DNA of 34,070 nt from Candidatus Iainarchaeum sp. (GTDB lineage Archaea; Iainarchaeota; Iainarchaeia; Iainarchaeales; Iainarchaeaceae): the NCBI GenBank assembly GCA_043812975.1, contig JBDRLP010000021.1, forward strand, positions 1-34,070. Reading direction: 5' to 3'. Shown here piece after piece: positions 9,001 to 32,146 of this stretch. The notes under the pieces were generated by a model. It worked only from the letters and a program-made list of their open reading frames with translations. It was not told the origin of the DNA and made no database searches. A program made the position numbers and the translations under genes. Positions within the stretch are counted from its first letter, which is position 1. Each line of letters begins with the position of its first letter.

Positions 9001-9186
9001 AGCATGGAAAGAGAAAATTATTCGAAAGAAGAAGCTGCAGAATCACTCAAAAAACTATGGCCAAATGTTATAGTAAAAAAAACAGAAGCCTTACACAAAC
9101 CAGTCTGGCATATCGTGCTTTCAGAAGACGCAAAAGAAAGAATTGTTCTTATTGATGCGGTTAATGGAAAAATAATACAGCAGTAA
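6085..9186 (+). CDS. HerA/FtsK-like (DUF87) ATPase with long acidic N-terminus and C-terminal winged-helix region
   Basis: Walker A GARGSGKS, VVDPIG, Walker B LFIDEAH, GRRPGLSLVFATQQP; D/E-rich residues approx. 1-190 and approx. 750-790. Confidence 0.85.
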   Translation: MAKEEKEHKTTENEETRPLGDERVEETIVSDDLDLFDEVLGDKKTSDLKEIVDKNDPVEDEKEDEEEESEDEESGKEDEEDSDKEEDEKQDEDDVDEKEIKKVEETPEDEEKTEDEESEDEEESEEDSDEEESEKDDTIDADAKEKDETEEIEEDDEETEDEESEDEESDEGNEESEDDTVDADSQEPEELKALVKEDIKNTILEKADTAAEGANAIPLGEKLEFLEDKENNSVFIGRKSNIFKKFGSEAALQIGKVQETEHEYKDVYLDSLNPHVVFVCGARGSGKSYVLGVIAEELAEKNKNVGMIVVDPIGVFWSMKYPNKEEKEVEKLIKWGLEPQGLKNMKVFIPEGVKKEVPKSTYDSGFSIQPSLLTGEDWALTFGIDRFSVSGLLLEKVLKKVEKGYKQKETNKKIPGKRKNFSINDLTTCLETDAELNSREKGYKPDSIRAITSRFEAAKTWGIFDEKGTPLGKLSREGQMTVLDTSFLDDNVTALVIGILARRLLAARKISTRKEAANQFKELNMEELIELEIPPTWLFIDEAHTLIPSGNEVTAATSGLIEYVKQGRRPGLSLVFATQQPSAISTKVLSQLDIIITHKLIFDDDIKAVFKRTPTIIPKRYRNPNFIKTLPVGVAVTGDRREETSRAFVMGIRPRKSQHEGRDAETTGFSETLDEKQVEKIAVGMISKDLEREESIDIEKVQLAVETLNNKYHANIDFKKILRKLEEKGFVVGETSVMVKGYVQENAVDELTEDDKDEEEENEEENDEEDKKEDDEEEEGDEEEEVEAVELLSLPKRISEENARKIVERLRKKRLFGLLGNADRIEEIQLKYFPMWRVKFDVMTRGKEFISRECFINSISGEFVHFKDGNFIESKGLRNLSELNPEEVLVMSGLQKKELLIEEIMAQTELEEAKTRRILQKLMEKSLVEKITDKKTGKTIYWVKEKIDLPPNEKHEMLSSIASLPFVKAEALSMERENYSKEEAAESLKKLWPNVIVKKTEALHKPVWHIVLSEDAKERIVLIDAVNGKIIQQ

Positions 9187-9249
9187 GTTCTATCGAGCAC
9201 AATCGAAGATAGAACGCCGCCCAAAGGGCGTCCACCGACGCAACGGCGG
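9187..9249 (+). repeat. Stop-codon-anchored palindromic element, copy A
   Basis: GTTCTATC-GAGCACAATCGAA-GATAGAAC; CGCCC-AAA-GGGCG; CCACCG-ACGCAA-CGGCGG; flanked by a duplicated gene end (9163-9186 and 9251-9274). Confidence 0.9.
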
Positions 9250-14114: not shown

Positions 14115-14393
14115 ATGATAAAGCTTAGTAATTTCATTGGTCAACCGTGCCAGTCAAGGATAGCTTTCGAGTTTTTGCCAAAAAAAGAACACAAACTTAA
14201 TTTGGAAACAACCGCAAGAAAACTAAGAGAAAACGAAGTATTCATTGAACTTGAAAGTCCTTACTTAATAATGCTGAAAATTACAGGCACTAATGTTTCA
14301 CTTTTTAAAAGCGGAAAAATAATCGTAAAATCCACAAACGAAAAAAAAGAAGCAAAAAAAATCGCGGAAAAACTAATTTCTAAGATGCAGTAA
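14115..14393 (+). CDS. Small protein resembling a single TBP-like domain
   Basis: VSLFKSGKIIV followed by helix EAKKIAEKL; ATG 14115 preferred over the 14061 start. Confidence 0.6.
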   Translation: MIKLSNFIGQPCQSRIAFEFLPKKEHKLNLETTARKLRENEVFIELESPYLIMLKITGTNVSLFKSGKIIVKSTNEKKEAKKIAEKLISKMQ

Positions 14394-14458
14394 GTAGCAT
14401 CGAGCCACAAGGCGAAGATGGTACGCCGCCCGAAGGGCGTCCACAGACGCAACTGTGG
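14394..14458 (+). repeat. Stop-codon-anchored palindromic element, copy B
   Basis: GTAGCATC-GAGCCACAAGGCGAA-GATGGTAC; CGCCC-GAA-GGGCG; CCACAG-ACGCAA-CTGTGG; duplicated gene end 14349-14393 and 14460-14504. Confidence 0.92.
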
Positions 14459-17427: not shown

Positions 17428-18198
17428 ATGCCAAAAAAAGTTGAAAAGAAAGAGGACGAAGTCGAAAAGAAAATCGACTTTACTAAAGAAAAGATAAATG
17501 ACAACAAAACAGGTATTGCTGAAATTAGGGATGAAATAACAGATACAGGAAAAGACGTAGATGAAATAAAAGAAGAAGTTATTGATGCAGGAAAAGACGT
17601 AGACGAGATCAAAAAAGAGGTTATTGACACAGGAAAGGATATTGATGATATTAAAGAAGAAGTAGAGGATACGGGAAAAGACGTAGACGAAATAAAAGAA
17701 GAAGTACTTGAAACAGGAAAAGACGTAGATGAAATAAAAGAAGAAGTTGTAGAGATAACAAAAAGGCAAAATACTATACTGAAAAAAATTTCAGCACAAT
17801 TTCTTCCTTCCGAGTTTAACTTTAACGACGTTGCACAGCAAATTGTAGGAGCAATAATCCTGTCAAGTCCGCTTGCAGTAACAGAAGAAGTATGGAATCT
17901 TGCAAAAGAACTTGACACTGCAAGAATACTAGTAATAATCGGAATAACATTATTGTTTGATATTTTATTGATTTATTACACGGCTTACAGAAAAGAAAAG
18001 GAACGAAAAATAATCAATCTGATTCCTGCAAGATTGTTCTCAATGATACTTATTTCTTACTTAACCGCAACAACAATTCTGTACGTTTTCGGAGTAATAG
18101 GACTACACATCACCGACATGGACTGGGCATTAAGACTCATAGTATTCGTAGGGTTATTTGCTAATGTAGGTGCTGGAACTGCTGATATAATCAAATAA
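17428..18198 (+). CDS. DUF2391-like membrane protein with N-terminal 14-aa repeats
   Basis: DVAQQIVGA...PLAVTEEVW motif followed by TM helices. Confidence 0.75.
   Translation: MPKKVEKKEDEVEKKIDFTKEKINDNKTGIAEIRDEITDTGKDVDEIKEEVIDAGKDVDEIKKEVIDTGKDIDDIKEEVEDTGKDVDEIKEEVLETGKDVDEIKEEVVEITKRQNTILKKISAQFLPSEFNFNDVAQQIVGAIILSSPLAVTEEVWNLAKELDTARILVIIGITLLFDILLIYYTAYRKEKERKIINLIPARLFSMILISYLTATTILYVFGVIGLHITDMDWALRLIVFVGLFANVGAGTADIIK
17542..17751 (+). repeat. Five 42-bp coding tandem repeats
   Basis: (D/E)(T/A)GKD(V/I)D(E/D)IK(E/K)EVx five times. Confidence 0.9.
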
Positions 18199-18292
18199 GT
18201 ACTATCGAGTCCCGCCTGACAGGCGTGACGAAGATAGTACGCGCACCACACAGCAACCGAAGGGAGTACCCGCAAGGGTGCCGCAACTGTGT
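18199..18292 (+). repeat. Stop-codon-anchored palindromic element, copy C
   Basis: GTACTATC-GAGTCCCGCCTGACAGGCGTGACGAA-GATAGTAC; GCGCACC; ACACAG...CGCAA-CTGTGT with internal hairpins; duplicated gene end 18157-18198 and 18294-18335. Confidence 0.92.
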
Positions 18293-18340
18293 TTTTGCTA
18301 ATGTAGGTGCTGGAACTGCTGATATAATTAAGTGAAAAAA

Positions 18341-19150
18341 TCATTTTTTGAATTTTTTTATTTCATTAAAAGGACCGGAAAGAGTTACCAAATTCCTTGA
18401 AAATTCAGCTTTTATGGTTGAAGAAAAAACAGTGATTAAACCCAAAGGAATATGGTTATTTTTTTCAACATAAGTGAAAAGTTTCTTTAAATCAGATTTT
18501 TCCATCTGAAAAGTATTGTTTCTTGATTTAGAATTAAATCTTGCAGCTAAAGCAACAAGAGTTTTTTCATTCTGGCACTCAACAGTAATTTCTTTATCAG
18601 AAAAAAGCGAACCTAAAAGCTTTGCAGAATTCTTATTCAAAGGTTTTGCAAAAGAATCATTAAAATCAAGTTCTTTCAAAGAATTAATTTGCTCATCCAG
18701 AACTCCGGAAATATAATTCAAATGTTTTACTTTTTTCTTTAATTGCTGTTCAACCTGCTCGAGGTTTGAAATTGAAAAATCAAGCGAACTCTTAGAAGTT
18801 TTTAACAAATCATTATCATCGCGTCCTCTCTGAATCATGACCTGTAGTTTACTCACAATAAAGTCAACATCATTCTCAGGTTTTTTTTGTTTCAATGAAT
18901 CATTCAACCCAATAACAAGTTTGTTTTTTATTTCAGAATAAATTTCAGATTTGCCTTTTTCCAAAAGATAAAATCGGTTGCCTTTTCTTGAAAGAAAACC
19001 AAAAGTAGTTAAGTCCTTAAGCGAACGCGAAAGAGCAGCTCTCGCAGAATTAATGTTAGAATAAGAAGACGCAAATTTATTGAGAAGAGAATTATAATCA
19101 ATTCCCTCATTCTGCTTTACAATTAAAAGTATAGTATTTTTAGTACTCAT
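18341..19150 (-). CDS. Hypothetical protein with N-terminal winged helix and coiled coil
   Basis: SARAALSRSLKDLTTFGFLSRKGNRFYL wHTH-like pattern. Confidence 0.65.
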   Translation of the reverse strand: MSTKNTILLIVKQNEGIDYNSLLNKFASSYSNINSARAALSRSLKDLTTFGFLSRKGNRFYLLEKGKSEIYSEIKNKLVIGLNDSLKQKKPENDVDFIVSKLQVMIQRGRDDNDLLKTSKSSLDFSISNLEQVEQQLKKKVKHLNYISGVLDEQINSLKELDFNDSFAKPLNKNSAKLLGSLFSDKEITVECQNEKTLVALAARFNSKSRNNTFQMEKSDLKKLFTYVEKNNHIPLGLITVFSSTIKAEFSRNLVTLSGPFNEIKKFKK

Positions 19151-20558: not shown

Positions 20559-23500
20559 TTGACAAAAATAACACAGTTAAAACTAAAAAATTTCAAGTCT
20601 TTTAAAAAAGCAGAGATTCCTTTCGCAAGAGGATTTACTGCAATAGCAGGCGCAAACGCATCAGGGAAATGTGTAATTGGAGAAACAATGGTTGCTTTAC
20701 CCAATGGCGAACAGAAGAAAATCAGTGAAATTGTAAAGGAAAAACTTGAAAACACAACTGCCAAAAAATTTTTAGAAGATGGAGTTATAGGATTTAATCA
20801 GGATTCAGATTTCAAGGTAATGAGCCTGAACTTGAACACACTTAAGCTTGAAGAAAGAACAGTGCAGGCAGTTGTCAAAAGAACAGCCCCTAAAAAACTC
20901 CTGAAAATAAGAACACGGAACGGAAGAGAAATAACAACCACAGATTACCACCCATTCTTTAGTGTCGGCAAAAAAGGATTATACTCACTCAAAGCAAGCG
21001 AATTAAAAGAAAAACAATTCATTGCAACCCCTCGAAATCTCAGTGAAAGAAAAAAAGAGCTTTTCTTTTGTGAACTTCTGGAAGAAATTGAACCAAAAAA
21101 CAATTTATACGCCCCGTTCAACCAAAGGTATCTAGAAATAATCCAAAATTACATTAAGGCAACAGGCTATACAACAAAAGAAACAGCAAAAGAAATGGAC
21201 ATTCCGGAAAACGCGATAAAAGGACTTAAGGACAAGCAGGCAATAAATTTGGCGCATCTCATAAAAATTTTGAAGACAATTGGTTTTGAAAATGAACAAA
21301 TAACAGAATTAGTACCAATAGTCAAGGGAAAAACTTCCAAAAAAGAAATTAAAATGATTTGGAAAAACTCACAAGAATTTTCAAGATTACTTGGATATTT
21401 TTTTGCAGAAGGGAGCTTTTCTGGGAAAAATCCGAGATTAGCCAATGAATCAACAGAAATAATAGAAGACATAAAAAATATTTGCGAAAAATTAACCGGT
21501 AAAAAAGTTTTCATTAAAAAATACAAAGAAAATTCTTTTGATTTAATAATCAATTCACATGCATTCTATCAATTGCTGTCAAAATTCGGGTTGGAAGAAA
21601 AATCAGGGGCACGAGGGAAAAAAATCAAGGAAATATTCTTCAAACATTCCGACAAAGAAGAACTAGCTGCTTTTTTGGACGGTTATCTCTCAGGAGACGG
21701 GTATATATCCAAAAGTACGGTGAGTTCAGCGACAGCTAGCGAAGAACTCGCCAAAGGAATAGAAAGAATATACCTTGGATTGGGTATAGTTCCATCAACA
21801 AGAAAAACCAATAAAAAAATAAAGAAAACAGGATTCGAAGGAAACTACTTTGAAGTAACTATAAGCGGAGCCACAAACATAAGCGAATTTACAAAAAAAG
21901 TCAGTTTAACACACATACAAAAAATGCTGAAAATTAGAAGACTCTGTAAAAAAAGAAAACACACAAATACAGATCTCATACCGCACATCAACAATATTAT
22001 AAAAGAAGCCTGCATCGAAAACCAAATTAAATACGCAAGAAAAAAAAACAAAAACATTAAACTGAAATCATACACTGATTTTGCCTGCCACCCAAGCAGA
22101 CATGGTTTGCAGGAAGTGCTCCAACAGGAATTCAAAGGAAAACAATCAGAAAAAACAGTTGTTTTGCATGCACTCGCGGATTCCCAAGTTTTCTGGGACC
22201 AGATAACAAGCATAAAAGAAGTAACAAAAAAACCAAGACATGTTTATGATTTAACAGTTGAAGAAACACACAACTTTGTTGCAAATAACATAATTATACA
22301 CAACAGCAACATATTAGATGCATTGCTTTTTGCCATAGGAATAACCTCGCTGAAAATGCTCAGAGCATCAAGACTTACTGAACTTGTAAATCACGATTCC
22401 AAAGACGGTTATGCGAAAGTAGAACTTACTCTTGAAGATGATAATGGAAAAGAAATTCAAGTAACGAGAATTATTGATAAACAAGGAAAGAGCATTTACA
22501 AATTAGATGGAAAAAGAAAAACCCTGAACGAAATACAATCTTTACTTCTTGAAATAGGAATAAACCCTAACGGACACAACATTGTTGTACAGGGAGACAT
22601 TACAAGAATTACTGAAATGAATGCAAAGCAAAGAAAGCGCATTATTGAGGAAGTTGCGGGTTTACAGGAGTTTGAAGAAAAGAAAGAAGAAGCAATAAAA
22701 AAACTGGAAAAGGTTGAGCAAAAAGTAAAGGACGCAACTCTTGTTCTTAATGAAAGAGAAATTTACCTACAGCAGCTTGAACAGGAAAGGGGAAACGCAT
22801 TAAAGTATAATGAATTACAGGAAGAAGTGAAAAGATCCAAAGCAACAATTCTTTCAGAGGAAATTAAAATCATTAAAAAAGAACTAGGCGGAGCAAAAAA
22901 ACAATTAGATGAAATGCAAAAAGAAATCGGAGATAAGAGAAAGGAAAGAGATAAGCTTCAGGAAGAGGAAAGAGAATTAGAAACAAAAGTAGAAGAAGCA
23001 ACAAAAAAACTTATAGCTTCCAGCGAAAAAACTTATTCTGGTTTAGGAAAAGAAGTCGAACAGAAAAAAGGACATCTTGTGCTGCTTAATGAGCGTTTTA
23101 ATTCAAGGAATTATATAATTGAAGAAAAATCTGCAAGGAAAGAAAAACTGAAAGAAGAAGAAAAAGAAACAAAAAAAATAAAGGAAGAAAAAGAAGAACA
23201 ACTAAAACAGGCATCTTATTCACTTGAAAAAACCAATGAACAACTAAAAAGCATCCAGCAGCACATTAACTCAAAGAGCCCTAAGCTAGAGGAAAAAAAA
23301 GAAGGAACTCAGAGCAGTGAGGAAATTTATTACAAGTTAGGAAAAGAAATCGAGGAATTAAAAGAAAAACTGCACGAAGCCAGAATTTCCAAAAACAACC
23401 ATGAGAAAGAAATCAATTCTGCAAAACATAGCCTTCAGGAACTAGAAACGCGAAAAAGCAAACTGGAAATAAAAATAAGAGAAAAAGAAGAATTAGAGAA

Positions 23501-25181
23501 AAAAATCATTCACCTTGAAGGCAAAGCCCCAAATGAAAGATTAGAAGCAAAGGAAAAAGAACTTGAAAAACTAATGAATGAACTTCACGTTTCAAAAGGA
23601 AAACATGAAAGCATTCATGAAGCAATTGAAACTTTACAGCAAACAAAATCCGAGTGTCCTATATGCGATAAACCTCTTGAAAAAAATACTAAAGAAACTA
23701 TTACAGGCAAAAAGCGGAAGGAAATAGGGGAACTTAAAACAAAAATCGCAGAACTTACCGCGCAAAGGGAAAAGATTGAAGAAGAAAAGAAAAAAATTAA
23801 GATTGATGAAAAGGAACTGGCAGAACTCAAATACTCTATAAAATCATTCACAGGTTCGGACGAGGAATTTGCAAGTATAAAAGAAAATATAACTAAGCTG
23901 AAAGAAACTGCTTCATCCAAAGAACATGAAAAGTACAGCAAACAAGAAAAGGAACTAGAAAACAAAATAGACGGGTTGCAAATCAGAAGAAGCGAGGTTG
24001 AAAAGAAAATTAATGATTTTAAGCAGAGTGAAGCCAACATCGAAATGAACCAGCTTCTACATAAAATGCAGGATTTGAATGAACAAAAAAACGAAAAAGG
24101 CAGGTTTGTAACAGAGTTAAGCACTGAAATTGAAAAGGTTCTGAAGCACAGGCTTGAAAGCATTAAGGAAGAGGAAAAAATAATAGAAAAGGAACTTAAC
24201 GAAACTAAAAAAGGCATTGCTGAAATCAGGGAAGAAAAAGAAAAGGAAGAAAAGGAACTTGAAAAAATGGAAGCTGAACTTGAAAAATCAAGCAAAGCAA
24301 ACAAATTACTCGAAGAAGAAAAAGACAGATTAACAACAAAAATAAAGAACATTTCAGAAAAAAGAGATATACTTGGAAGGAAAATTGAAAATCAGGAAAA
24401 GGAAGTTAATGAAATTAATTTGAACCAATCCAAAAATGAAGTGAGGATTGTTGATCTTGAAGAAGAATTCAAGGATTATTCTGCTGTTAAAGTTCTTTCA
24501 GAATTTGTTCTTAATGATTTGAAAACAAGAATTCCGGAAATAGAAAAGGAAGTTGAAAAACTTGGAGCTATTAATATGAAGGCTCTGGAAAACTTTGATG
24601 CTTACAAAAAAGAAGTTGATGATGTAAGAGAAAAAGCAACTAAGCTTGATGAAGAAAGGAAAGCAGTAATAGAAATGATTGATAAAATAGAAGTAAAAAA
24701 ACTGAATGTGTTTATGGAATGTTTTAATCACGTTTCTAAAAAATTCTCAGAACTTTATTACAATTTCTTTGAAGGTGAAGGTCACCTTGACTTAACAGAT
24801 AAAGAAAGCCCGCTGGAAGGAGGTCTGCTTATACAGGCAAAGTACAAGGAAGATGTAATGAAAAGTATTGATGCAATGAGTGGAGGAGAAAAGAGTTTAA
24901 CTGCAATGGCATTCCTGTTCGCAATCCAGAGCTTTGAACCTGCACCATTTTACATTTTTGATGAGGTTGATGCTGCACTTGACAAGGATAATTCTATTAA
25001 AGTAGGTAAAATGATTAAAGGCCAGAGTGGGTATAGTCAGTTTATTTCAATCAGCCACAATGACTCAGTAATTAATCAGGCAGACCAAATTATTGGAGTT
25101 GCTTTGAATAAACAAAAAAGTTCTATAATTGGGTTGAAATTGAAGAAAGAAACTCCTTCTTCCACGCATGCTGAGGCATGA
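20559..25181 (+). CDS. smc: SMC-family ATPase (intein-containing, approx. 995 aa mature) with central CXXC and no recognisable hinge
   Basis: NFKSF, Walker A GANASGK/S split by intein, Q-loop VVQGDI, LGAINMKALE, MSGGEKS signature, PAPFYIFDEVDAALD; TTG start. Confidence 0.85.
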   Translation: MTKITQLKLKNFKSFKKAEIPFARGFTAIAGANASGKCVIGETMVALPNGEQKKISEIVKEKLENTTAKKFLEDGVIGFNQDSDFKVMSLNLNTLKLEERTVQAVVKRTAPKKLLKIRTRNGREITTTDYHPFFSVGKKGLYSLKASELKEKQFIATPRNLSERKKELFFCELLEEIEPKNNLYAPFNQRYLEIIQNYIKATGYTTKETAKEMDIPENAIKGLKDKQAINLAHLIKILKTIGFENEQITELVPIVKGKTSKKEIKMIWKNSQEFSRLLGYFFAEGSFSGKNPRLANESTEIIEDIKNICEKLTGKKVFIKKYKENSFDLIINSHAFYQLLSKFGLEEKSGARGKKIKEIFFKHSDKEELAAFLDGYLSGDGYISKSTVSSATASEELAKGIERIYLGLGIVPSTRKTNKKIKKTGFEGNYFEVTISGATNISEFTKKVSLTHIQKMLKIRRLCKKRKHTNTDLIPHINNIIKEACIENQIKYARKKNKNIKLKSYTDFACHPSRHGLQEVLQQEFKGKQSEKTVVLHALADSQVFWDQITSIKEVTKKPRHVYDLTVEETHNFVANNIIIHNSNILDALLFAIGITSLKMLRASRLTELVNHDSKDGYAKVELTLEDDNGKEIQVTRIIDKQGKSIYKLDGKRKTLNEIQSLLLEIGINPNGHNIVVQGDITRITEMNAKQRKRIIEEVAGLQEFEEKKEEAIKKLEKVEQKVKDATLVLNEREIYLQQLEQERGNALKYNELQEEVKRSKATILSEEIKIIKKELGGAKKQLDEMQKEIGDKRKERDKLQEEERELETKVEEATKKLIASSEKTYSGLGKEVEQKKGHLVLLNERFNSRNYIIEEKSARKEKLKEEEKETKKIKEEKEEQLKQASYSLEKTNEQLKSIQQHINSKSPKLEEKKEGTQSSEEIYYKLGKEIEELKEKLHEARISKNNHEKEINSAKHSLQELETRKSKLEIKIREKEELEKKIIHLEGKAPNERLEAKEKELEKLMNELHVSKGKHESIHEAIETLQQTKSECPICDKPLEKNTKETITGKKRKEIGELKTKIAELTAQREKIEEEKKKIKIDEKELAELKYSIKSFTGSDEEFASIKENITKLKETASSKEHEKYSKQEKELENKIDGLQIRRSEVEKKINDFKQSEANIEMNQLLHKMQDLNEQKNEKGRFVTELSTEIEKVLKHRLESIKEEEKIIEKELNETKKGIAEIREEKEKEEKELEKMEAELEKSSKANKLLEEEKDRLTTKIKNISEKRDILGRKIENQEKEVNEINLNQSKNEVRIVDLEEEFKDYSAVKVLSEFVLNDLKTRIPEIEKEVEKLGAINMKALENFDAYKKEVDDVREKATKLDEERKAVIEMIDKIEVKKLNVFMECFNHVSKKFSELYYNFFEGEGHLDLTDKESPLEGGLLIQAKYKEDVMKSIDAMSGGEKSLTAMAFLFAIQSFEPAPFYIFDEVDAALDKDNSIKVGKMIKGQSGYSQFISISHNDSVINQADQIIGVALNKQKSSIIGLKLKKETPSSTHAEA
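20670..22304 (+). mobile_element. 545-aa intein with LAGLIDADG homing endonuclease in the SMC Walker A motif
   Basis: Starts CVIGET; block B TTDYHPFF; LAGLIDADG-like LLGYFFAEGSF and FLDGYLSGDGYI; ends VYDLTVEETHNFVANNIIIHN followed by +1 Ser. Confidence 0.96.
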
Positions 25182-31069: not shown

Positions 31070-31121
31070 TAACAGTTGCGGCTGTTAGGTACGCGTCCAC
31101 TTCGCTTTTGCTCAGTAGGAC
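31070..31121 (-). repeat. Stop-codon-anchored palindromic element, copy D
   Basis: GTCCTACT-GAGCAAAAGCGA-AGTGGAC; GCGTACC; TAACAG-CCGCAA-CTGTTA; begins in the rpl10 TAG. Confidence 0.8.
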
Positions 31122-32146
31122 TAGTTACCTTCGGTCGCATCCCCTCCTTTAGTATCTTCCTGCTTTTCTTCTGCAGGAGCTTCTTCTTTAGGAGTTTCTT
31201 TTGCTTCAGGTTCAGGAGTTTCCTCTTTCTTTTCTTCTTCAGCAACTTCTTCTTTCTTTTCTTCTTTTGCCTCTTCCTTTGCTTCTTCCTTAGGTTCTTC
31301 CTTTGGAGCATCCTTGATTAAAGGCTTCAAAGCACTTGCCTGTGCATTAGCCTTAGCCAATAGTGAACCTACTGTTGCTGAATTCAGAATGTTAGCTTCC
31401 AGCGCAACTGCTTTTGCATTATTGAAAGCTTTTGAAATCAAAAGTTCTGTTGTTTCAGATGTAAATATTTCTGTATTAACAGCAAGGTTGAATGCTTTTT
31501 TGTGAGCATTTACAAAATTTCCGAAAACCTCATCAATGTCAATATCAAGAACATCTGCTTTGTAAACCTGTCCCTGTTCTAAAACAGAAATAATCTTCAA
31601 ACCAACTTTGAAAGGTTTAATATTAAGTTTTGAAAGAGTTCCTGCTACTGCCGCATTTACAGGTTCTCCTGCTTTAGTAACAACCTTAGCTTGCATAATA
31701 GAAATTGTGGGCCCTTGAATAGCTACTTTTAATCCTGCTGATTTCAAATCAGTTAATGCAGGTCCTGGAGGTATTCCTGTATCTCCTGCAGGAATGCTAA
31801 TATCTTCCTCAGCAATAGCACCAACTTTTGCAGAAATTCTTCCCTTATTCTTTTTCAGAAACGCGTATAACTCAAAAGGATTCATTTCAGTAAAAATCAA
31901 AGCACAGTTTTCCTTAGCATCATCAACCAAAATATTTGTGTCCTTTACTTCTGAAAGAGCTTGTTTGATTATTTTTGTTTTAGAAACTTTAACAACACTG
32001 TTTTTTTTCAGTTTTTTTCTAACCTGCTGAAACAAAGCAGCAGGATACATGTTAACATCAGCAACAGCAACAACAGGATAACTTGAAGCTAACTGTTTTA
32101 ATTCAGATAATTGTTTTTCTTTCCAAGGTCTTGTGTGTGAAGTCAT
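31121..32146 (-). CDS. rpl10: 50S ribosomal protein L10 (P0)
   Basis: PWK, QQVRKKL, MNPFEL, IPAGDTGIPPGP and LSKLNIKP motifs; operon position. Confidence 0.95.
   Translation of the reverse strand: MTSHTRPWKEKQLSELKQLASSYPVVAVADVNMYPAALFQQVRKKLKKNSVVKVSKTKIIKQALSEVKDTNILVDDAKENCALIFTEMNPFELYAFLKKNKGRISAKVGAIAEEDISIPAGDTGIPPGPALTDLKSAGLKVAIQGPTISIMQAKVVTKAGEPVNAAVAGTLSKLNIKPFKVGLKIISVLEQGQVYKADVLDIDIDEVFGNFVNAHKKAFNLAVNTEIFTSETTELLISKAFNNAKAVALEANILNSATVGSLLAKANAQASALKPLIKDAPKEEPKEEAKEEAKEEKKEEVAEEEKKEETPEPEAKETPKEEAPAEEKQEDTKGGDATEGN

Follow-up and report, generated by a model that had tools for sequence, protein, structure and literature searches.

A small structured element, probably mobile, at the stop codon of a DUF2391 gene in Candidatus Iainarchaeum

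Small hairpin repeats are known from bacteria and organelles. Rickettsia palindromic elements (RPEs) and MITE-like repeats of bacteria (MITE, miniature inverted-repeat transposable element) are short and non-autonomous, and they lie in or beside the genes of reduced genomes without destroying them; RPEs are tolerated because they are translated in frame. Integrative elements target the 3' ends of tRNA and protein genes, bring a replacement 3' end, and give rise to direct repeats (attL and attR). Related double-hairpin and repetitive hairpin elements exist in fungal and sponge mitochondria. According to the part of the source available, the GC clusters of yeast mitochondria are small GC-rich hairpin repeats that are scattered through an AT-rich compact genome, occur sporadically among relatives, possess a constrained hairpin, and have no known enzyme; they are flanked by direct repeats of 2-3 nucleotides (nt), AG or ACT, and an RNA route has been discussed for them too (PMC4478555). 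Integration at an archaeal tRNA gene is also on record (PMC3293823, as far as the available part goes). Herein we analyzed a 34,070-nt stretch of DNA from the archaeon Candidatus Iainarchaeum sp. (the window; contig JBDRLP010000021.1 of assembly GCA_043812975.1), where the last 42 nt of a gene coding for a DUF2391 membrane protein are repeated beyond its stop codon and a GC-rich element, copy C, lies between the two tails. We show that copy C belongs to a multi-copy family with a covarying fold, that the orthologous sites are empty, that duplications abut the 3' end of the element, and that its copies are biased toward the sense strand. Copy C is probably a mobile structured insertion element of this family, accompanied by a target duplication.

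Yeast mitochondrial GC clusters appear to be the closest known kind, as the archaeal family shares every one of the features just listed for them except the length of the flanking repeats, which is 14-49 nt in the archaeon. The host of the yeast clusters is an organelle and that of the present element an archaeon. A pseudoknot, a juxtaposition to tRNA ends, and the rebuilding of stop codons, all found here, are not described for the yeast clusters in the available part of that source (PMC4478555). Like RPEs and MITE-like repeats, the archaeal element is short, non-autonomous, and harmless to the genes of a reduced genome; unlike them, it has neither terminal inverted repeats nor a duplication of fixed length, and copy C, in contrast to an RPE, would be tolerated through a duplicated gene tail and a rebuilt stop codon. 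The order of an intact gene 3' end, an element, and a displaced copy of that 3' end is the one left by integrative elements. The archaeal element differs from these in being 55-95 nt long and non-coding; since its targets are many and unrelated, a single att site or a site-specific integrase cannot explain it.

The window is contig C21 of a 1.24-Mb genome (68 contigs, 35% G+C), in which an archaeal RNase P RNA and a TBP-domain protein are encoded, both marking the host as an archaeon. The DUF2391 gene (17428-18198, + strand) ends with the 13 codons FANVGAGTADIIK and a TAA stop codon. A first-pass annotation, made from the letters alone, had pointed out that the tail is repeated downstream with changes only in the last three codons (ATC/ATT, AAA/AAG, and TAA/TGA), with which the sequence and the list of open reading frames (ORFs) agree. 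It had further called the duplication fully synonymous. The two third-position changes are indeed silent, but the term is overstated: the third base of the upstream TAA is at the same time the first base of copy C as modelled (a 1-nt overlap), so that the TAA/TGA difference probably derives from the element itself. As only two third-position differences then remain, synonymy carries little weight. Read-through of the stop codon into the second tail was ruled out, because the two tails are 137 nt apart and hence mutually out of frame. The stretch between them (18196-18293) is GC-rich and 95-98 nt long. Local alignment of the 90-nt flanks of copy C gave a score of 71, against a median of 15, a 99th percentile of 27, and a maximum of 39 for 400 random positions of the genome with equal spacing. 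The stop codons of the second tail and of a convergent gene (18341-19150, - strand) are 5 nt apart (18336-18343), which leaves practically no free intergenic sequence at the insertion site.

At seven related DUF2391 loci, spread over six other genomes, the gene ends with ...ADI(I/L)(K/R) followed directly by a stop codon, and none of the seven was matched by the covariance model of the element (R1, see below). Copy C is thus an insertion relative to these loci. In one relative (L036), the flank that follows the gene's own stop codon is the same as that which follows the second tail in the window, and the second tail with its flank therefore represents the uninterrupted arrangement. Which tail is ancestral in sequence is ambiguous, since one relative (L030) ends like the first tail and L036 like the second. 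A possible diverged element was seen by eye ~45 nt further downstream at the DUF2391 locus of genome G002. In genomes G001 and G003, which are of the same genus, the element is also missing from the sites that two other copies, A and B, occupy in the window; a weak degenerate element (E = 0.02) follows the stop codon of gene B in another genus (L106). The first-pass annotation had missed that a multi-copy element is inserted at this locus. It had also missed that the 42-nt repeat is duplicated target, a feature of the family that the orthologous empty sites lack.

A simple motif search found ~19 copies of the element in the host genome. The covariance model R1, for which 14 short copies were aligned and the structure was written by hand, gave 52 matches in the same genome at E<=1 and 40 at E<0.01, four of which (A-D) lie in the window. 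At E<=0.001, matches were obtained in 32 of 60 related genomes (33 of 61 when the host is included), with 0 to 41 copies per genome; the positive relatives comprise 19 of 22 genomes of the same family and 13 of 38 from the other families of the order. The core of the element is ~55 nt, expanded forms reach ~95 nt, and none encodes anything. Rfam returned no match to the element at the gathering score in the window, at E<=10 for copy C, or at E<=5 for 16 element loci. A motif search of viral contigs picked up at least 120 loci, and since R1 confirmed 0 of the 80 tested, those 80 are due to chance. Among the 120 matches listed from a wider scan of genome contigs, almost all were from GC-rich bacteria, and they are regarded as uninformative. 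Full-text searches on repeats in DPANN archaea or Iainarchaeota and on tRNA intron transposition listed no description of the family.

Members of the family share two stems and a pseudoknot. Stem 1 consists of 8 base pairs (bp) around a conserved GA/GAA internal loop, with a variable inner hairpin beyond the loop; in another subtype of stem 1, the internal loop has the shape of a symmetric tandem GA. A linker (ACGC-NNN-ACC) leads to stem 2 (6 bp). The loop of stem 2, which may read xCGCAA, RAGCAG, or otherwise, base-pairs with this linker in an H-type pseudoknot, the partners of which covary (GCUU/AAGC, GCUC/GAGC, GCCC/GGGC, GCG/CGC, ACCG/CGGU, and ACACCU/AGGUGU). Pairing was tested on 85 R1 hits from the host and its relatives, 82 of them distinct. 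In the 82 copies, standard pairs occupied 90.7% of the cells, compared to 69.3% in shuffled alignments, and the covariation score was 0.534, compared to 0.165; none of 500 shuffles reached that score, and controls with slid positions stayed at or below 0.123. Double-sided changes occurred at 18 of 21 pairs, including 8 of 8 in helix 1 (92.6% paired) and 5 of 6 in helix 5, i.e. stem 2 (96.5% paired). The pseudoknot helix lies outside R1, and the alignment had been fitted to stems 1 and 2 and not to the pseudoknot; even so, 83.9% of its cells were paired and three of its four pairs had double-sided changes. Covariation, which the first-pass annotation had named as the check on a conserved core, is thus strongly positive over many genomes, and the family possesses what is expected of a structured RNA family in general, a fold backed by compensatory changes.

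Copy C itself is an expanded form. Folded as RNA, its + strand reached -39.4 kcal/mol (z = -4.56, with 0 of 200 shuffles as good), while the - strand (z = -2.17) and the + strand folded as DNA were less distinctive. The extra hairpins described earlier as nested within both stems are all present in the minimum-free-energy fold of the + strand, and conservation of the GAG..CGAA and CGCAA motifs said to be kept extends to copies A and B. Closest to copy C (84% and 82% identity) are the two other members of the expanded subfamily, G000:C1:49722 and G000:C68:3407, both flanked by duplications; mutual identity among the three is 82-84%. As all three carry like inserts in the same two loops, these loops accept inserts while the core is fixed, and inserts are confined to loops across diverged copies as well; the proposal of a constrained core with tolerant loops is accordingly borne out by the family alignment. 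Sequence does not discriminate between the functional RNA and the single-stranded DNA (ssDNA) scaffold of the first-pass annotation, and the wobble asymmetry in the stems, 38 G:U against 30 A:C pairs, does not separate the two. The fold would be recognized, by the propagating machinery or by the cell, in the single-stranded sense strand, either as RNA or as non-template DNA.

Duplications like that at copy C recur throughout the family. Flanking repeats scored >=28, above the 99th percentile of the null, in 17 of 44 copies of the host genome, and in each of the 17, 0-3 nt separate the element's 3' end from the second repeat. In the relatives, 17 of 59 scorable copies reached that score, 16 of them with the repeat 0-2 nt from the 3' end; the remaining one is of low complexity and lies 18 nt away. 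The duplications are 14-49 nt long, and the first repeat lies 0-28 nt upstream of stem 1. Mostly, what is repeated is the terminal part of the upstream gene as far as its stop codon; at operon overlaps of the ATGA type, it also includes the ribosome-binding site and start codon of the next gene, and two of the duplications correspond to a tRNA's 3' part. In seven of the 44 host copies, A, B, C, and D among them, the stop codon of the upstream ORF overlaps the first 1-2 nt of the element; in copy D, the overlap is 2 nt, and flank alignment found no duplication around this copy. The 45-nt duplication of copy B carries four substitutions (40 of 45 aligned positions identical), and its stop codons differ (TAA/TAG). 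At all four informative differences, the second tail has the state of the same-genus orthologue and the translated first tail is changed, with one R to K replacement and three synonymous changes. Similarly, the second tail of copy A encodes an ancestral ...IISQ and the first ...IIQQ. Differences between tails are mostly silent because they sit in the translated copy, where selection filters them.

A tandem arrangement at G000:C1:19200-19400 (L002) consists of a target, an element, the target again, a variant element, the target once more, and a gene. The target is 19-20 nt long and comprises a ribosome-binding site and a start codon; the variant has a different first hairpin and an identical stem 2. 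This looks like two insertions into one site.

Between or inside genes of the same direction, 23 copies were in the sense and two in the antisense orientation, on gene calls by a home-made codon-usage ORF caller that render these counts approximate. Placement of the element was surveyed for 104 copies, 44 in the host and 60 in relatives. In 14 of the 104 copies, the 5' end of a tRNA gene on the same strand lies -2 to +3 nt from the 3' end of the element. Five of the 31 tRNA genes of the host carry an element in this way. One stands directly upstream of tRNA-Ile in five genomes from three genera, and the tRNA-Ile elements of two genomes of the same genus are of different subtypes. In several tRNA-linked copies, a TATA-like motif was seen by eye ~25-30 nt upstream of an additional 5' module; given that position, the element would constitute the 5' terminus of the tRNA precursor, from which RNase P would release it.

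This optional 5' module reads GCGAAGC(A/C), or is doubled as in GCGAACGAAGTGAGCC, and is located ahead of stem 1 in numerous copies (e.g. G000:C12:19212-19231; L068, L070, and L079). By eye, it occurs in tRNA-linked and many other copies and is mostly missing from those flanked by duplications. In G045, a genome of another family, two tRNA introns of 81-82 nt (L065:134-215 and L094:137-217; tRNAs for Ser and Ala by ARAGORN) consist almost wholly of an antisense element with the 5' module, and the 3' end of the element lies 0-2 nt from the 5' splice site, on the other strand. A similar antisense copy was recognized by eye in the 91-nt intron of the host's tRNA-Cys gene (C7:428-589). Another copy (G000:C3:26850-26916; L004:401-467) is embedded in the 5' end of a same-strand ORF; inspected by eye, it is in frame and free of stop codons between the ATG and a conserved-looking ...RGLFVGRFQP start. 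Translation would include this copy as an N-terminal insert, provided that it is not removed at the RNA level.

Table 1. Positions of the two gene tails, of copy C and its parts, and of the other element copies in the window
Feature	Position (nt)	Strand	Description and basis
Tail copy 1	18157..18198	+	Translated; 13 codons FANVGAGTADIIK and TAA; sequence and ORF list
Tail copy 2	18294..18335	+	Untranslated; same 13 codons FANVGAGTADIIK and TGA
Element copy C, expanded subfamily	18198..18292	+	Covariance model R1, 47.5 bits, E ~1e-8 to 1e-10
Domain 1	18199..18240	+	8-bp stem, 18199-18206 with 18233-18240; minimum-free-energy fold
Conserved GA/GAA internal loop	GAG 18207-18209, CGAA 18229-18232	+	Closed by stem 1
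Nested hairpin in domain 1	18213-18225	+	CGCC-TGACA-GGCG
Linker	18241..18247	+	GCGCACC; GCG 18241-18243 can pair with CGC 18282-18284 (pseudoknot; copy C by eye)
Domain 2	18248..18292	+	6-bp stem, 18248-18253 with 18287-18292; minimum-free-energy fold
Mini-hairpin in stem 2 loop	18257-18263	+	CC-GAA-GG; inserted
Mini-hairpin in stem 2 loop	18266-18281	+	GTACCC-GCAA-GGGTGC; inserted
Conserved motif in stem 2 loop	18282-18286	+	CGCAA
Element copy A	9186..9249	+	3' of the stop codon of a HerA-like ATPase gene; 15-nt exact duplication, then a diverged tail end
Element copy B	14393..14458	+	3' of the stop codon of a small TBP-domain gene; 45-nt duplication
Element copy D	31070..31122	-	Other stem-1 subtype (AGTCCTAC...GTGGAC); R1 match

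If copy C arose in the manner we favor, a small, non-coding, strand-specific structured element would have landed on the DUF2391 stop codon, and the insertion would have been accompanied by a duplication of the gene's last ~40 nt. The TAA would then be completed by the first base of the element as modelled, and an untranslated copy of the tail would be left directly after its 3' end. The reading frame of DUF2391 would thus still end correctly because its tail was duplicated. That the flanking duplication arises at insertion is our inference.

Several observations weigh against this account. No mobilizing enzyme was identified among the four families searched for (RVT_1, Y1_Tnp, TnpB, and Cas1). 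The untranslated tails of copies A and B are ancestral and the translated ones changed, although a neutral relic is expected to change more; a tRNA-Arg case is opposite, the relic being the copy that has changed. A duplication is undetectable in 27 of the 44 host copies, which indicates that it need not occur or is frequently short. The difference between a copy and its nearest counterpart is 11-25% even where the flanking repeats are identical, as at G000:C1:49722 (42 of 42 positions), and this is not what one expects of recent copy-and-paste with a source in the same genome. A simple cut-and-fill model explains neither this divergence nor the position of the 3' end at RNA-processing sites. 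Lastly, the recurrence of the element at tRNA-Ile hints at retention or function rather than pure parasitism.

The last point leads to an alternative that we regard as rather unlikely, namely that the element is an RNA processing or stability module used by the host, with copies maintained for their usefulness. The folded RNA would demarcate transcripts: the 3' end of the element might be cut by a nuclease, or by RNase P where a tRNA adjoins, or the fold might protect the 3' end of the upstream mRNA. The copies placed exactly at tRNA 5' ends, the presence of an element at tRNA-Ile in five genomes of three genera, the archaeal RNase P RNA, the strong sense bias, and a fold maintained by compensatory change are all in line with such a module. 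Against it, the sites of copies A, B, and C are empty in close relatives, 26 of the 31 host tRNA genes have no element, and copies are also found in the antisense orientation, inside tRNA introns, and inside coding frames. Moreover, the difference in subtype between the tRNA-Ile elements of two same-genus genomes looks like turnover rather than inheritance. A host function of this kind does not exclude mobility.

A mobile element could also spread as RNA in the absence of a recognizable reverse transcriptase. Such an archaeal mobile RNA, akin to a short interspersed nuclear element (SINE) and relying on the RNA-processing, ligation, and repair enzymes of the host, is in our opinion unlikely to be the answer. 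The 5' leaders of tRNA precursors would serve as its master copies, and the RNase P cut would set the exact 3' end; the freed, very stable, pseudoknotted RNA, or a copy of it, would be joined end-to-end to other nucleic-acid ends. Recombination with the homologous site would then establish the chimera in DNA, and the duplicated stretch would be what remains. Evidence for end-joining is that the 3' end of the element lies 0-3 nt from RNA-processing sites, namely the tRNA 5' ends (14), the 5' splice sites of tRNA introns on the other strand (2), the starts of ribosome-binding sites, and gene tails.

Distinctly unlikely, in our estimation, is a retroposon-like route, in which a transcript of the tRNA leader is freed by RNase P and copied into DNA at nicks. 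It predicts a 3' junction that is precise, and a 5' end and target duplications that vary, the hallmarks of target-primed reverse transcription, and these are what the copies display: a 3' junction precise to 0-3 nt, a 5' spacer of 0-28 nt, and duplications of no fixed length. The 5' module, present in tRNA-linked and many other copies and missing from most duplication-flanked ones, and the high sequence diversity with compensatory changes also fit. However, the reverse transcriptase domain RVT_1 (PF00078) was found in 0 of 23 genomes of the family, at genome completeness of 63-95%, so that a retroposon would have no such enzyme in its host, and two copies lie antisense inside tRNA introns. 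SINE-like retroposons resemble the present family in their precise 3' end, variable 5' end and duplication, and link to a tRNA transcription unit. They differ in having an A-rich tail and in being derivatives of a tRNA, where the present element would be a tRNA leader; the failure to find a reverse transcriptase in the 23 genomes sets the family apart as well. A diversity-generating retroelement was considered and rejected. In such systems, differences are confined to the adenines of the template repeat; those between the tails (C/T and A/G at copy C; G/A, T/C, G/A, and A/G at copy B) show no specificity for adenine, and the search just described revealed no reverse transcriptase.

That the element is a self-cleaving ribozyme, with the GA/GAA loop and the pseudoknot as a putative catalytic core that cuts one of its ends, appears very unlikely. 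The compact pseudoknotted fold, the invariant unpaired purines, and the exact 3' boundary would suit a ribozyme, and the GA-G[stem]C-GAA arrangement resembles the flank of stem II in the hammerhead ribozyme, but the element has no three-way junction or uridine turn, and the Rfam searches described above matched it to no known ribozyme class.

Least credible of all is an ssDNA element of the HUH or IS200/IS605 type (a relic resembling palindrome-associated transposable elements), or a classical MITE, casposon-derived or other, that a known transposase mobilizes: strand-specific hairpins, frequent GNA-type triloops and GCGAAGC motifs (the mini-hairpins of which are exceptionally stable as DNA), rare G:U pairs that barely outnumber A:C pairs, and the habit of casposons of duplicating 14-15 bp at gene 3' ends speak for it, whereas the host genome gave no match to Y1_Tnp (PF01797), the stems are internal hairpins rather than terminal inverted repeats (the 5' and 3' ends are not complementary), and the duplications are long and variable rather than short and fixed. 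IS200/IS605-type elements are not known to duplicate their target; the 17 of 44 host copies with long ones, together with the lack of a Y1 transposase, leave the HUH cleavage suggested by the first-pass annotation without support. TnpB is present as one copy in the host and scored over the cut-off in 15 of 61 genomes. As a partner, with the element as its guide RNA, it was rejected, being missing from most element-rich genomes (e.g. G045, with 41 copies) and showing no correlation with the element. Cas1 as a partner was likewise discarded, as it occurs in eight of 61 genomes and is absent from the host and from all element-rich ones.

The family is set apart from the small hairpin repeats known so far by its pseudoknotted fold kept by compensatory change, by its strong sense bias, by long and variable duplications that rebuild gene ends, stop codons, and ribosome-binding sites, and by a 3' end that falls exactly on the 5' ends of tRNAs; it is explained by none of the enzymes searched for, be it a transposase, Cas1, or a reverse transcriptase. 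A genome that is ~90% coding, on rough ORF calls, can thereby absorb dozens of insertions without loss of genes. For annotation, the duplicated tails, mini-ORFs, and long tRNA leaders or introns pose a risk, as they can mislead gene callers. Should the mechanism prove to be RNA-based or based on host repair, it would represent a new route of mobility in archaea.

Three further features of the genome are worth recording. AT-rich palindromes of the form TTTCTTTCTTTT-NNNN-AAAAGAAAGAAA adjoin several of the host's tRNA genes, upstream or downstream (e.g. C23:17922, C26:15980, C7:428, and C17:7770); they constitute a second repeat, unrelated to the element, and may serve as terminators or as stems for processing. 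In the DUF2391 protein, the N-terminal part is composed of at least five tandem 42-nt coding repeats (17485-17778, + strand; repeat family D2), the unit being 14 residues of the type DTGKDVDEIKEEV. In an SMC-like ORF of 1540 amino acids (20559-25181, + strand), ~520 residues interrupt the N-terminal P-loop; by eye, the translation looks like that of an intein, with a C after GANASGK at its start and HN followed by S at its end.

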